DNA of 44,297 nt. Origin: Bacteroidota bacterium (GTDB lineage: Bacteria; Bacteroidota; Bacteroidia; Chitinophagales; JADIYW01). Positions within the stretch are counted from its first letter, which is position 1; each line of letters opens with the position of its first letter. The position numbers and the translations under genes were made by a program. Of the stretch, positions 7,053 through 36,671 are shown in pieces. The stretch is from assembly GCA_020436175.1 (NCBI GenBank), contig JAGQYH010000002.1:1-44297 (forward strand). The letters are read 5' to 3'. The notes under the pieces were generated by a model. It searched no databases. It was not told where the DNA came from and saw only the letters and a list, made by a program, of their open reading frames with translations.

Positions 7053-8176
7053 TATCTATAAAATTCTTTAACTGAGCTACTAATATAATCCAAAATCTCA
7101 TTGTTCATTTCGGTATGAATGGGTAATGAAATGACGGTGTCACACAATTCATTGGTGTTCGGAAATTCATTTGCATCAATAGATGGATCGAAAAAAGCCT
7201 TTTGCCGATAGAGTGGCAATGGATAATAGATCATTGTAGGAATTTTCTTCTCACTTAAAAATGCTCTTAGTTCGTTCCTTGAATTCTTAGCAACCTTTAA
7301 CGTGTATTGATGAAATACATGGCTGGAATAGTCAGCTCTATTGGGCAAACATACCTCATTAACTTGGGCAAGAGTCTTGTCGTAGTAAGCGGCTACCTCT
7401 TGGCGGGCATTAATATATTTATCAAGATATTTTAATTTGACGCTCAGGATAGCAGCTTGTATGGCGTCTAATCTTGAGTTGATACCAATCCGCTCATGGT
7501 AATAGGTCTTAGACTGCCCATGATTACTGATCATTCTGATTTTTTGGGCTAAATCATCATCATTACAATTAATTGCTCCACCATCTCCATAACATCCCAA
7601 TGTTTTTGAAGGATAGAAAGAGGTTGTGCCGATAACACCTATTGTCCCGGTTTTCATGGTCTCATTGTTAGAAAATGTGTATTCGGCTCCAATGGCTTGT
7701 GCATTGTCTTCAATAATATAAAGTTGATTTTGCTGAGCCAATTTAACGATGGATTCCATATCGGCAGATTGACCAAACAAATGAACCGGAATGATGGCTT
7801 TAGTTGCAGGAGTAATTTTGTTTTTAATATGTTCAACACTTAGATTAAATGTATTTGGATCAACATCAACCATTACGGGTTTTAGCTTTAGGAGAGCAAT
7901 GACCTCGGCGGTAGCGACATAGGTAAAGGTGGGAACAATTACTTCATCTCCTTCTTTTAGGTCCAATGCCATCAAAGCAATCTGGAGAGCGTCAGTGCCG
8001 TTACCACAGCCGATTACATGCTTGGAATTCAGATAATCGGATAATTCTTGTTCGAATTGATGAACATAAGGTCCTTTAATATATTGAGAGGAATTTAATA
8101 CATTTTGAATGGCCTCATTAATTTCAGTTTTTATTTTTAAATACTGATTTTTTAAGTCCACCATCTGAATTTCCAT
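7052..8176 (-). CDS. DegT/DnrJ/EryC1/StrS-family aminotransferase, WbpE-like
   Basis: 374 aa. [11 protein letters not shown], the [14 protein letters not shown] region (PLP-lysine segment), and overall family-typical length and order. Confidence 0.85.
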
Positions 8177-26546: not shown

Positions 26547-26621
26547 CGGGGTGTAGCGCAGTCCGGTTAGCGCACCTGGTTTGGGACCAGGGGGTCGCAG
26601 GTTCGAATCCTGCCACCCCGA
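26547..26621 (+). tRNA. tRNA-Pro(TGG)
   Basis: Acceptor CGGGGTG/CACCCCG. Anticodon arm CCTGG-TTTGGGA-CCAGG. T arm GCAGG-TTCGAAT-CCTGC. Discriminator A. Confidence 0.9.
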
Positions 26622-26630
26622 CGAAGCAAG

Positions 26631-35287: not shown

Positions 35288-35760
35288 TGCCCATATAGAA
35301 GCAGATAAGCTAGAAGAGTAGAAGAGTGTTGGCTTTAAGATCTAAAACAAAACCTTGATACCTCAACTTGTCACATTTTTGAAAAAAATTAAAAAAAATA
35401 TTGAAGTAAAATAAGACCATATAAAAATTGGGGAATGATCATTAAACAAATGAGAGACAGGCATTTATAACAATTCCGGTTTCTGTTTATTAAACAGCAG
35501 GGATTGTCATGTCTTTGAAACAACATAACTAATTGAAAATCAATGTAAAATAAATTATTAAAAGTTGTAATTGTAAAACATTTGACTTTACTTTGCAGTT
35601 GTAATTGAAACAACAATAAACAACAAGAAATGAATTTTAATCAGACAATATATAACCATCGATTCCCCAGTGAGCATCAAGGTGCTGATTGTGGTATTGA
35701 GGATTTTAGAATAAGGAAGAGGTGTATTTAATGGATATTTTCCAAGAGATAATCAATTAA

Positions 35761-35790
35761 AGCACCATCCGAAAGATGGTGTTTTTTTTT
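35761..35790 (+). terminator. Intrinsic terminator immediately upstream of the tRNA array
   Basis: CACCATC-cgaaa-GATGGTG stem followed by T9. Confidence 0.65.
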
Positions 35791-35819: not shown

Positions 35820-35909
35820 TGAGGTATGGTGTAACGGTAGCACAATGGGTTTTGAGCCCATGGGTTTAGGCCTGCCTGCGATAGGTAGGTTCGAATCCTG
35901 ATACCTTAA
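35820..35909 (+). tRNA. tRNA-Gln(TTG) carrying a 19-nt hairpin between the T-stem 5' strand and the T-loop
   Basis: Acceptor TGAGGTA/TACCTTA (U1:A72, as I recall for bacterial tRNA-Gln). D arm GTGT-AACGGTA-GCAC. Anticodon arm ATGGG-TTTTGAG-CCCAT. Variable loop GGGT. T stem TTAGG/CCTGA, with the insert at 35871-35889 before TTCGAAT. 71 nt without the insert. Confidence 0.7.
35871..35889 (+). repeat. 19-nt hairpin insert, copy 1 (CCTGCCT-GCGAT-AGGTAGG)
   Basis: 7-bp stem (one G:U pair) and a 5-nt loop. Located exactly between T-stem position 53 and T54 of tRNA-Gln. Confidence 0.75.
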
Positions 35910-35924
35910 CTGAATTTTAAATTT

Positions 35925-35997
35925 CTGGAGAGATAACGGTTGGTTGTTTACTCACCTTGATGATCAATAGGTCGTTCTTCGAATCCTGCTCTTCAGA
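35925..35997 (+). pseudogene. Degenerate tRNA-like element (3' half resembles tRNA-Lys), with no foldable anticodon loop
   Basis: 73 nt. Acceptor CTGGAGA/TCTTCAG pairs, and the T-loop TTCGAAT with 3' T-stem CCTGC are present. The 5' T-stem strand (CGTTC) is not complementary. The anticodon region collapses to TTGAT-G-ATCAA. Confidence 0.35.
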
Positions 35998-36009
35998 CGA
36001 AATGATTAC

Positions 36010-36081
36010 GGCTCATTGGGGTAAAGGCCATCCTACCCGACTGTCTCTCGGGAGATACGAGTTCGAGTCTCGTATGAGCCG
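36010..36081 (+). tRNA. tRNA-Asp(GTC), with pyrimidine at position 37
   Basis: Acceptor GGCTCAT/ATGAGCC, discriminator G. Anticodon arm CCCGA-CTGTCTC-TCGGG. T arm ACGAG-TTCGAGT-CTCGT. Confidence 0.7.
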
Positions 36082-36087
36082 CTGAAT

Positions 36088-36160
36088 GGTGTTTTTAGTT
36101 TATTAGGTAAAACGGCTCTCTGTGAAGGAGTAGAACAGGGTTCGATCCCCGAAAACACCC
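36088..36160 (+). tRNA. tRNA-His(GTG), with imperfect T stem
   Basis: GGTGTTT(T)/(A)AAACACC acceptor, compatible with a G-1:C73 His-type 8-bp stem. D arm GTTT/AAAC. Anticodon arm GCTCT-CTGTGAA-GGAGT. T stem CAGGG/CCCGA pairs only at 3 positions. Confidence 0.6.
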
Positions 36161-36172
36161 GAAAATGGAAAA

Positions 36173-36264
36173 GACAAGATGGCTGAATGGTTGAGGCAAC
36201 GGACTGCAAATCCGTATCATGTGGGCCTGCCTGCGGTAGGCAGGTTCGAATCTCACTCTTGTCT
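36173..36264 (+). tRNA. tRNA-Cys(GCA) carrying the same 19-nt hairpin between the T-stem 5' strand and the T-loop
   Basis: Acceptor GACAAGA/TCTTGTC. Discriminator T (U73 is the Cys identity base). Anticodon arm ACGGA-CTGCAAA-TCCGT. Variable loop ATCAT. T stem GTGGG/CTCAC, with the insert at 36226-36244 before TTCGAAT. Exactly 73 nt without the insert. Confidence 0.7.
36226..36244 (+). repeat. 19-nt hairpin insert, copy 2 (CCTGCCT-GCGGT-AGGCAGG)
   Basis: Perfect 7-bp stem and 5-nt loop. 17/19 identical to copy 1. Same structural position (53/54). Confidence 0.75.
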
Positions 36265-36277
36265 CTATGAAAGAAAT

Positions 36278-36354
36278 ACTCTGTTCGTCTAATGGTTTGA
36301 GGACGTCTGCCTTTCTAGCAGAAAAAAAGGGTTCGATTCCCTTACAGAGTACCA
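36278..36354 (+). tRNA. tRNA-Glu(TTC) with encoded CCA, pyrimidine at position 37
   Basis: Acceptor ACTCTGT/ACAGAGT, discriminator A, then CCA. D arm GTCT/GGAC. Anticodon arm TCTGC-CTTTCTA-GCAGA. T arm AAGGG-TTCGATT-CCCTT. Confidence 0.8.
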
Positions 36355-36356
36355 AA

Positions 36357-36409
36357 GGAGGTGTAATCAAATGATCGGTGTAGGCGTCATGTCTTAGCCT
36401 CCAATTTTT
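36357..36409 (+). other. Structured spacer: two-tier hairpin followed by AATTTTT (terminator-like or processing element) in the middle of the array
   Basis: Outer stem GGAGGT/GCCTCC (36357-62 / 36397-402). Inner stem ATGAT/GTCAT (36371-75 / 36386-90). Then a T5 run at 36405-09. No T-loop motif, so not a cloverleaf. Confidence 0.4.
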
Positions 36410-36482
36410 GGAACTGTGGTGTACTGGGTGTGCACATCCCCTTGAAGACGGGAAAGTATCTGTTCAACTCAGGTCGGTTCCA
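36410..36482 (+). tRNA. tRNA-Phe(GAA)
   Basis: Acceptor GGAACTG/CGGTTCC. D arm GTGT/GCAC. Anticodon arm TCCCC-TTGAAGA-CGGGA (C31:C39 mismatch). T arm ATCTG-TTCAACT-CAGGT. Discriminator A. 73 nt. Confidence 0.8.
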
Positions 36483-36499
36483 CAAATATTACGCTAACA

Positions 36500-36574
36500 T
36501 CCAAGGTAGCTCAGAGGCAGAGCAGGCGGCTGTTAACCGCCGGGTCGGGATTTCGAAATTCCCCCTTGGAGCCA
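36500..36574 (+). tRNA. tRNA-Asn(GTT) with encoded CCA, U53:U61 in place of the conserved G53:C61
   Basis: Acceptor TCCAAGG/CCTTGGA. D arm GCTC-AGAGGCA-GAGC. Anticodon arm GGCGG-CTGTTAA-CCGCC. T arm GGGAT-TTCGAAA-TTCCC. Discriminator G, then CCA. Confidence 0.75.
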
Positions 36575-36647
36575 TGTGATATAGCTTAACGGTGAAAGCA
36601 TTTGCCTTATACGCAAATAGATGAAGGTTCAAGTCCTTCTATCACAA
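36575..36647 (+). tRNA. tRNA-Ile(TAT)
   Basis: Fully canonical 73-nt cloverleaf. Acceptor TGTGATA/TATCACA. D arm GCTT-AACGGTGA-AAGC. Anticodon arm TTTGC-CTTATAC-GCAAA. T arm GAAGG-TTCAAGT-CCTTC. Starts on the base immediately after the CCA of tRNA-Asn. Confidence 0.85.
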
Positions 36648-36671
36648 CAATGAGAATTAAAAGTGTGCAAT

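Follow-up and report, generated by a model that had tools for sequence, protein, structure and literature searches.

How does the same short hairpin come to lie at the same point of two unrelated tRNA genes, and are genes altered in this way still used? The question is raised by a tRNA gene array of a Bacteroidota bacterium of the Chitinophagales (contig JAGQYH010000002.1 of assembly GCA_020436175.1, positions 1–44,297; this whole stretch of 44,297 nucleotides (nt) is termed the window). Here a 19 nt palindrome interrupts the genes for tRNA-Gln and tRNA-Cys between tRNA positions 53 and 54, i.e. exactly where the T-stem meets the T-loop. The reading favored here, with a probability of roughly 0.55, is that the 19-mer is a copy of a palindrome which is mobile at the DNA level and targets the T-arm box of tRNA genes, and that it is carried as a passenger hairpin in accessory tRNAs that are still in use.

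The tRNA-Gln(UUG) gene is found at positions 35820–35910 of the window and the tRNA-Cys(GCA) gene at positions 36173–36265, both on the plus strand. The palindrome copy in tRNA-Gln, CCTGCCTGCGATAGGTAGG, occupies positions 35871–35889 and the copy in tRNA-Cys, CCTGCCTGCGGTAGGCAGG, positions 36226–36244, also on the plus strand. The two 19-mers differ at two positions only, an A/G difference in the loop and a T/C difference that exchanges G·U and G–C, and pairing is kept. The Gln insert is flanked by TTAGG on its left and by TTCGAAT and CCTGA on its right; the Cys insert is flanked by GTGGG and by TTCGAAT and CTCAC. In each case the two 5 nt strands are complementary. ARAGORN calls a tRNA-Gln(ttg) of 91 nt and a tRNA-Cys(gca) of 93 nt, and when the 19-mer is deleted in silico it calls normal tRNAs of 72 and 74 nt (71–72 and 73–74 nt by our delimitation of the genes). 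All stems of tRNA-Gln are intact.

Folded alone, each 19-mer gives a stem of 7–8 bp, with energies of −9.4 and −11.4 kcal/mol (z = −3.6 and −2.8). In the minimum-energy fold G53·U54 and G52·U55 are predicted to be added to the hairpin, and the T-loop would have to form in competition with these pairs. The pattern occurs twice in the window where none is expected (100 shuffles), and a looser search of the 44-kb window shows no further copies. With the Rfam tRNA model the Gln gene scores 41.8 bits and the Cys gene 40.3 bits, compared with 46–75.6 bits for the array neighbours; no Rfam family besides tRNA is matched in the window and 18 related loci. The preliminary description of this DNA had claimed the same hairpin at 53/54 of both genes, a hairpin fold of the insert, canonical tRNAs after its removal, and hairpin arms equal to the T-stem strands of a tRNA-Pro. 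The first three are borne out by the data above, and the last by the sequence GCAGG TTCGAAT CCTGC at 26547–26622.

Placement at 53/54 depends on where the T-arm is drawn. If the T-arm is taken to lie downstream of the insert, the 19 nt become a long variable arm of the class II type, and the preliminary description had itself named this fold as one that would count against it. The Rfam covariance model does put the insert in the variable region, but its alignment costs one T-stem pair in Gln and two in Cys. The contexts of the palindrome followed by TTCRAxT are more telling: 28 of 80 distinct ones have flanks that are complementary at 5/5 positions, and these flanks are of many sequences (0.6 such contexts are expected by chance). 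Thus the 53/54 register gives a full T-stem in 28 distinct contexts, against one context when the T-stem is formed from the 3′ arm of the hairpin itself. In Gln the energy is −26.4 kcal/mol with the insert at 53/54 and −16.4 kcal/mol in the other fold. Orthologs without the insert lack exactly 19–29 nt at 53/54. It is the comparative contexts that decide the placement, and the energies agree. T-stem pairing exists only with the insert at 53/54; the class II fold is rejected and has practically no chance of being correct.

The 19-mers belong to a family whose consensus is the perfect palindrome CCTGCCTGCCGGCAGGCAGG and whose copies are 19–29 nt long. In the loci collected for comparison (designated below by L numbers) the family has 119 distinct sites. 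Exact 20-mers recur in unrelated contigs, and the arm sequence is conserved across distant taxa, i.e. between families and even phyla. A metagenome scan, which required TTCRAAT directly after the palindrome, gives 110 contigs. A scan of one genome per species led to a metagenome-assembled genome (MAG) of Ferruginibacter (L006) which has a similar array with the insert at 53/54 of tRNA-Lys and tRNA-Cys. Altogether, full-length tRNAs with the insert at this junction are of the types Gln, Cys, Lys, Ile-GAU, Ile-UAU, Arg-ACG, Leu-UAG and Leu-UAA, together with one odd tRNA-like gene. Wherever the flanks are long enough to tell, these genes lie in tRNA arrays, and none among the loci collected is a full-length tRNA gene outside of an array. 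The recurrence at the same tRNA junction in other genomes and contigs is what the preliminary description had suggested looking for.

Of 18 copies in the Chitinophagales and Ferruginibacter loci related to the window, about 13 are at 53/54. Copies are also found away from tRNAs; the family is thus a dispersed repeat, though one with a strong T-loop preference. A common repeat indifferent to T-loops had been named in the preliminary description as an outcome unfavorable to it. The palindrome is a common repeat, but the indifference is contradicted by the 28 of 80 contexts and the 13 or so of 18 copies. Origin by fold-back of local sequence is rejected, because identical arms stand beside many different T-stems. 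The TTCAAAT flank of copies outside tRNAs was considered as a Bacteroidetes −7 promoter box on the opposite strand; this fits one group of loci only and was dropped. Phage and plasmid collections gave no informative match to the palindrome joined to a T-loop. No published description turned up in full-text searches, which covered the sequence itself, inserts in the T-loops of bacterial tRNAs, and GIY-YIG genes next to tRNA-Leu genes of Bacteroidetes.

Comparison of orthologs shows that the palindrome comes and goes. Orthologous genes differ by the clean presence or absence of exactly the palindrome. The hairpin of tRNA-Ile(UAU) is present in L248 and L258 and absent in the window ortholog, that of tRNA-Cys is present in the window and absent in the L258 ortholog, and that of the odd tRNA-like gene is present in L083 and absent in L006. 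The insert boundaries display no target-site duplication, with at most 1–2 nt of ambiguity from a shared G. The tRNA-Gln genes of L247 and L248 have an orthologous copy of the Gln hairpin with the same unusual loop and T16. The orthologous copy of the Cys hairpin survives in L248 within a chimera of tRNA-Asp and tRNA-Cys, which a deletion of the intervening genes has joined precisely at the hairpin. L247 and L248 are 99.5% identical over 2.3 kb, yet the hairpin in tRNA-Arg(ACG) has been replaced as a block, a 29 nt variant standing in one and a 20 nt variant in the other, and each variant matches another hairpin in its own genome. Presence/absence polymorphism, clean boundaries and conversion tracts, i.e. 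the marks of homing-type elements, are all found. The palindrome is a mobile or convertible DNA element that prefers the T-arm box.

Other short palindrome families are also found in tRNA-derived DNA. Copies of the TCCCGATAATTATCGGGA type are located in D-loops, and copies of the ATCCGCC(N4)GGCGGAT type stand in place of an anticodon arm or ahead of a T-arm fragment. Such sites are at L248 8693–8775, L097 ~495–515, L083 6352–6430, L016 5838–5853, and in L266 upstream of the GIY-YIG gene. The CCTGCC family is therefore one of several that colonise tRNA loops in these genomes. In addition, some array members have inserts in the anticodon loop (L006 4853–4945; L083 6584–6697; L103 5099–5224, minus strand). 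One type is a 17 nt hairpin, CCTCTTTTTCTAAGAGG and its like, in the anticodon loop of the odd tRNA-like gene, of which the L083 copy also carries the T-loop palindrome. The other is a tRNA of 126 nt in which about 52 nt are inserted between the strands of the anticodon stem. Both types are far below the size of group I introns.

The substitutions in the host genes indicate that the cloverleaf has remained under selection while the hairpin was carried. The tRNA-Gln genes of the window and L248, whose hairpins are orthologous, differ at 12 positions outside the hairpin. Seven of these changes are in stems and all seven keep pairing, with three double compensatory changes among them. This retention was matched by 8 of 135,530 random simulations, each with at least 7 stem changes. 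Two double compensatory changes separate the tRNA-Cys genes of the window (hairpin) and L258 (no hairpin), and the T-stem of tRNA-Ile(UAU) covaries across the insert (GTTGG/CCAAC vs GAAGG/CCTTC). Identity marks are intact, i.e. U1–A72 in Gln and the discriminator U73 in Cys, and the T-loop is canonical. As all stem changes in Gln keep pairing and the identity marks persist, the hairpin-bearing genes are not simple wrecks.

A second association, which the preliminary description had not foreseen, concerns a small nuclease. Many of the T-arm contexts are 3′ tRNA fragments that stand a short way downstream of a complete copy of the tRNA concerned, and between the two is an open reading frame of about 80 amino acids (aa) with a GIY-YIG catalytic domain (PF01541). 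The order intact tRNA, GIY-YIG open reading frame and displaced 3′ fragment with palindrome is found at 10 loci that were reached from hairpins. A GIY-YIG open reading frame lies within 400 nt of 9 of 48 T-arm sites, compared with 1 of 51 sites that have the heptamer only. An unbiased set was obtained by picking nuclease homologues on protein similarity alone and then fetching their contigs, which gave six independent loci. All six display an intact tRNA-Leu, the GIY-YIG gene and one or more displaced fragments with the palindrome inside the T-loop box. They are from Mucilaginibacter psychrotolerans, Flavobacterium azooxidireducens (CP096205.1), Algoriphagus machipongonensis (CM001023.1), Antarcticibacterium arcticum, a Melioribacteraceae MAG and a metagenome lineage. 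The insertion point varies (53/54, 58/59 or 59/60) but falls inside the box every time, and in one case two copies stand in tandem. The copy from the Melioribacteraceae MAG and the Gln and Arg hairpins of L248 belong to one sub-variant. As a family, then, the palindrome is coupled to GIY-YIG cassettes. The GIY-YIG endonuclease SegB of phage T4 recognises tRNA genes by the sequence GGTTCRANTCC and brings about gene conversion in this region (PMC2330249).

The cassettes have further structure. They are flanked by direct repeats of 40–75 nt (L259, L261, L102, L260, L266, L267, L268) which span from the anticodon or T-arm region through the 3′ flank of the tRNA, and in some loci through the terminator. 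Two to four displaced fragments stand in tandem at some loci, and in L102 the stop codon of the open reading frame falls in the anticodon loop of the fragment.

In the mechanism proposed, the palindrome would be copied cleanly, with no target duplication, into the GGTTCRANTCC box of tRNA-derived DNA, usually exactly between G53 and T54. Copies would last only at sites whose T-arm is dispensable, i.e. in dead 3′ fragments beside small GIY-YIG genes or in array tRNAs that are putatively supernumerary. Spread would proceed by repair or gene conversion from a palindrome-bearing copy after breaks in T-arm DNA. The breaks are probably made by the GIY-YIG nuclease. A box once split would be refractory to further cutting or recombination, as in a homing insertion whose enzyme is provided in trans. 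In the transcript the hairpin may be a passenger, its helix of 7–8 bp projecting from the junction of T-stem and T-loop. Since the Gln and Cys genes remain under cloverleaf selection, the hairpin would be either tolerated in the tRNA or removed after transcription. The insert belongs to no known class of intron.

A more specific form of this mechanism is put forward tentatively, with the odds against it. The palindrome would be a minimal homing element of about 20 bp that splits the GGTTCRANTCC box of a tRNA-gene-specific GIY-YIG nuclease and is copied by repair into cleaved T-arms. The carrier tRNAs would still be used, either as a new extra-arm architecture or after a bacterial cut-and-rejoin reaction that is so far undescribed.

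Several findings weigh against the mobile palindrome reading or narrow it. Searches of the window and of every hairpin-bearing array locus examined, with tblastn and hidden Markov models, gave no GIY-YIG gene of this family; only membership of the palindrome family therefore links the window to the nuclease. The GIY-YIG proteins consist of the catalytic domain (the Pfam match covers residues 1–70 of about 80) and no DNA-binding domain is seen. The box is unsplit in the intact tRNA next to each cassette, which makes a simple immunity model incomplete. The TTCRAAT requirement of the metagenome scan preselects T-loop copies, and the scan counts give no overall T-loop share. Palindromes also occur in the D-loops of 5′ fragments (L259, L056), where there is no T box. 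Among the listed looser matches in viral contigs (at least 120 loci), 0 of 129 adjoin the T-loop heptamer; this hairpin-only scan gave mostly chance matches in GC-rich DNA and is of little use as an unbiased sample. The hairpin-bearing tRNA-Gln has also diverged faster than its neighbours, at 12 of 70 positions against 4–8 of about 74–75 positions in hairpin-free ones.

This faster divergence is also what would be seen if the insertion had inactivated both genes, leaving pseudogenes in a decaying and dispensable array. Decay in the arrays is evident: tRNA-Pro is dead in the window, L248 has lost Asp, His and Cys by deletion, and other members are disrupted by other palindromes. Full-length tRNAs with the palindrome are seen only in accessory arrays, and from the established tRNA structure a helix at 53/54 should disturb the stacking of T54–A58 on G53–C61. 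However, such relaxed genes would not be expected to show seven pairing-neutral stem substitutions out of seven, which the simulations so rarely equal, nor compensatory changes in Cys and Ile-UAU that include a T-stem spanning the insert, nor the identity elements and canonical T-loop that are kept. Inactivation of both genes is thus unlikely. A tiny palindromic element that inactivated both genes was one of three options in the preliminary description, beside a mini-intron or processing signal and an extra arm used as a recognition handle; its palindromic element stands, whereas inactivation is contradicted for Gln and, by the compensatory substitutions, weakened for Cys. If the genes are used, the hairpin may alternatively be a mini-intron which is excised by protein, e.g. 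a YkuK-type nuclease, with the halves rejoined to normal tRNAs by an RNA ligase. This would accommodate both the cloverleaf selection on insert-bearing genes and the canonical tRNAs that removal of the insert restores. The arrays adjoin a conserved RNase H-like protein, YkuK, and in relatives an Rnl2-type ligase (L249) or RtcB with an AlkB-like oxygenase (L252); short anticodon-loop inserts occur in other array tRNAs (L006, L083, L103). But the ligases are near hairpin-free arrays only, with none in the window or the hairpin loci examined, which weakens a cut-and-rejoin reading. YkuK itself adjoins arrays of 9–21 normal-length tRNAs and hairpin-bearing arrays alike. It was therefore rejected as a hairpin-specific enzyme; the preliminary description had suggested testing the YkuK-like protein for cleavage in vitro. 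There is no bulge-helix-bulge (BHB) motif, the hairpin abutting T-stem and T-loop without bulges, and the same palindrome is located in dead gene remnants and in DNA outside tRNAs, where splicing would be meaningless. To our knowledge no protein-spliced tRNA intron is known in bacteria, and literature searches turned up none. A mini-intron is accordingly rather improbable.

The hairpin may instead be a selected extra arm, kept in the mature RNA for a function of its own, e.g. as a mark for a partner protein or as a switch that sequesters U54-U55-C56. The predicted extension by G53·U54 and G52·U55 could mask the T-loop in this manner. All live tRNA copies retain the outer 7-bp stem, and in the dead Asp::Cys chimera of L248 it has decayed (GGCAGG to GCTGGG). 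Several changes in live copies are G·U-compatible in the tRNA sense, but A·C mismatches occur too, in L247 variants and in the closing pair in L248; the asymmetry between the two was abandoned as a test of selection at the RNA level, there being too few independent changes (about 4 vs 2). The conservation of the arms across distant taxa would suit a functional arm. However, the occurrence of identical palindromes in intergenic DNA and in dead fragments speaks for a constraint that is DNA-level or trans-acting, and not for tRNA function. Arrays of other Bacteroidota manage without the hairpin. The presence/absence variation and the variant swaps among close orthologs argue against a fixed role for any given tRNA. 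A selected arm is very doubtful, and the mobile palindrome carried as a passenger remains the preferred reading.

The window is a segment of bacterial chromosome. It encodes DnaA, MreB/MreC, PBP2, RodA, PurH, Lgt, an ECF sigma factor and OmpA-like proteins. Its closest relatives, Chitinophagales MAGs, have a YkuK that is 83% identical and share the dnaA...ykuK...ompA synteny. A phage origin of the array is rejected, as the window is chromosomal and has no close phage DNA match. The array appears to be of the accessory type termed L-array, i.e. a long array of closely spaced tRNA genes on one strand that adds supernumerary copies, such as the trn operon of Anabaena (PMC8421152). In Anabaena such arrays are induced by translational stress. 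It is at positions 35820–37266 of the plus strand and has the order Gln, decayed Pro, Asp, His, Cys, Glu, Phe, Asn, Ile(UAU), ykuK and Tyr, of which Gln and Cys carry the hairpin. Nine called tRNAs and one pseudogene are thus placed on a single strand in 1.45 kb; relatives carry up to 21 tRNAs. Syntenic arrays are present in L247 and L248, both Chitinophagales MAGs, and in L258.

The decayed tRNA-Pro(TGG)-like pseudogene (35925–36003, plus strand) is between tRNA-Gln and tRNA-Asp and is called by neither ARAGORN nor Rfam. Its L248 ortholog (7144–7217) is intact, with the T-arm GCAGG TTCGAAT CCTGC. The window copy has six extra nucleotides, TCGTTC, at the junction of the 5′ strand of the T-stem with TTCGAAT. 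The adjoining tRNA-His keeps G-1. The tRNA-Ile(UAU) gene (36575–36648), which is also encoded in the arrays of L083, L248 and L258, is the top-scoring tRNA of the window (75.6 bits). Its anticodon is unusual for bacteria, where AUA is normally read by a lysidine-modified CAU tRNA. The last member, tRNA-Tyr (37182–37266), is overlapped by a listed open reading frame of 376 aa (37117–38247). Relatives annotate a protein of 314 aa there, and the true start is therefore probably downstream of tRNA-Tyr.

The ykuK gene (36663–37157, plus strand) is embedded in the array and is given here as context only. Its product is a predicted RNase H-like protein of the YkuK family (PF04308) that is 65–83% identical across Flavobacteriaceae, Saprospiraceae and Chitinophagales. 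Across Bacteroidota, long tRNA arrays have a gene of this family as a conserved neighbour (also L255 3240–5486). The Rnl2-type RNA ligase gene is directly upstream of ykuK in L249 (4931–6483), and the genes for the AlkB-like oxygenase and RtcB are downstream of it in L252 (787–6272). These neighbours suggest a tRNA array joined to an RNA-repair module.

Just upstream of the array are a leader open reading frame of 33 codons (35630–35731, plus strand; MNFNQTIYNHRFPSEHQGADCGIEDFRIRKRCI) and an intrinsic terminator (35759–35790, plus strand). A terminator is found 25–60 nt ahead of the first tRNA in all tRNA arrays examined (window, L248, L258, L006, L083, L255, L249). The leader, of 33–35 codons, is conserved in the window and its two closest relatives (L248 6846–7010; L258 110–275) and ends about 30 nt before the terminator. 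Its amino acids appear to track the tRNA repertoire of its own array. The window leader has all ten array specificities and has no Leu and no Trp. The L258 leader has Trp twice and Leu four times, and the L258 array includes Trp and two Leu tRNAs. Leader and terminator may form a leader-peptide attenuation system that senses shortage of the tRNAs of the array itself.

Few features of tRNA are as invariant as the T-loop, and at 53/54 T54 stacks on the last pair of the T-stem. Many bacterial tRNAs nonetheless appear to evolve as working cloverleaves with a helix of 19–29 nt at this point. One meaning of this would be that the T-arm tolerates far more than has been assumed, which would be useful for tRNA engineering; the other would be an undescribed bacterial removal of short tRNA inserts. 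The palindrome, taken together with the catalytic-domain-only GIY-YIG genes beside tRNA-Leu in Bacteroidota and Ignavibacteriota, points to an uncharacterised selfish system which attacks or rearranges tRNA genes. Such a system, if real, would explain the fluidity of accessory tRNA arrays, and it offers a pair that can be tested, i.e. one small nuclease and one 20-bp site. In practical terms, hairpin-bearing tRNA genes are under-scored or missed by current annotation pipelines.

Among known systems, the non-canonical tRNA introns of archaea are of the BHB type and include T-arm positions, and intron transposition has been proposed in Thermoproteales. They resemble the palindrome as short inserts at non-anticodon positions, and near-identical inserts in unrelated tRNAs suggest mobility there as well. 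The palindrome differs in its host, which is a bacterium, with no splicing endonuclease known, and not an archaeon or eukaryote, and in its presence in dead fragments and non-tRNA DNA. Its continuous stem of 7–8 bp abuts G53 and T54, whereas a BHB intron would have a 3-nt bulge, a 4-bp helix and a second 3-nt bulge. Group I introns likewise are intervening sequences in bacterial tRNA genes that leave the tRNA functional, but they are ribozymes of more than 200 nt in the anticodon loop, whereas the palindrome is a simple hairpin of 19–29 nt at 53/54, with no Rfam match but tRNA for the 19-nt insert-bearing genes.

REP/REPIN sequences, Rickettsia palindromic elements and the GC clusters of yeast mitochondria are likewise GC-rich palindromes of 20–30 nt with many copies and rapid turnover. 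Insertions within structural-RNA or protein genes are tolerated, and recombination takes place between copies. The palindrome, with its 119 distinct sites, has the short imperfect palindromic form and the many dispersed copies of REP elements. Unlike them, its arms recur across families and phyla and are not species-specific, and it has an extreme preference for one junction of the T-arm box and an association with GIY-YIG genes. The GTAG head of REP elements adjoins none of the palindrome copies, whose left flanks vary, and no RAYT transposase turned up, although no search aimed at RAYT was made.

SegB has a DNA-binding domain besides its catalytic one. The Bacteroidota proteins, in contrast, have about 80 aa and the catalytic domain only, and no palindrome insertion is described for SegB. 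The likeness is that the SegB gene is a GIY-YIG gene among tRNA genes and that its recognition sequence GGTTCRANTCC is the box which the palindrome splits (PMC2330249). The L-arrays share with the present arrays some 10–20 tRNA genes on the same strand, frequent insertions, duplications and deletions, and neighbours such as rtcB and homing endonuclease genes; they differ in that no T-loop hairpins are reported there, whereas the Bacteroidota arrays are tied to ykuK and preceded by a leader that contains a terminator (PMC8421152). The palindrome lacks the defining features of archaeal BHB introns, group I introns, class II arms and classical REP/RAYT systems. By analogy it appears most like the short selfish palindromes combined with a homing logic of the SegB type, and there is a substantial chance that its outcome at the RNA level is something new.

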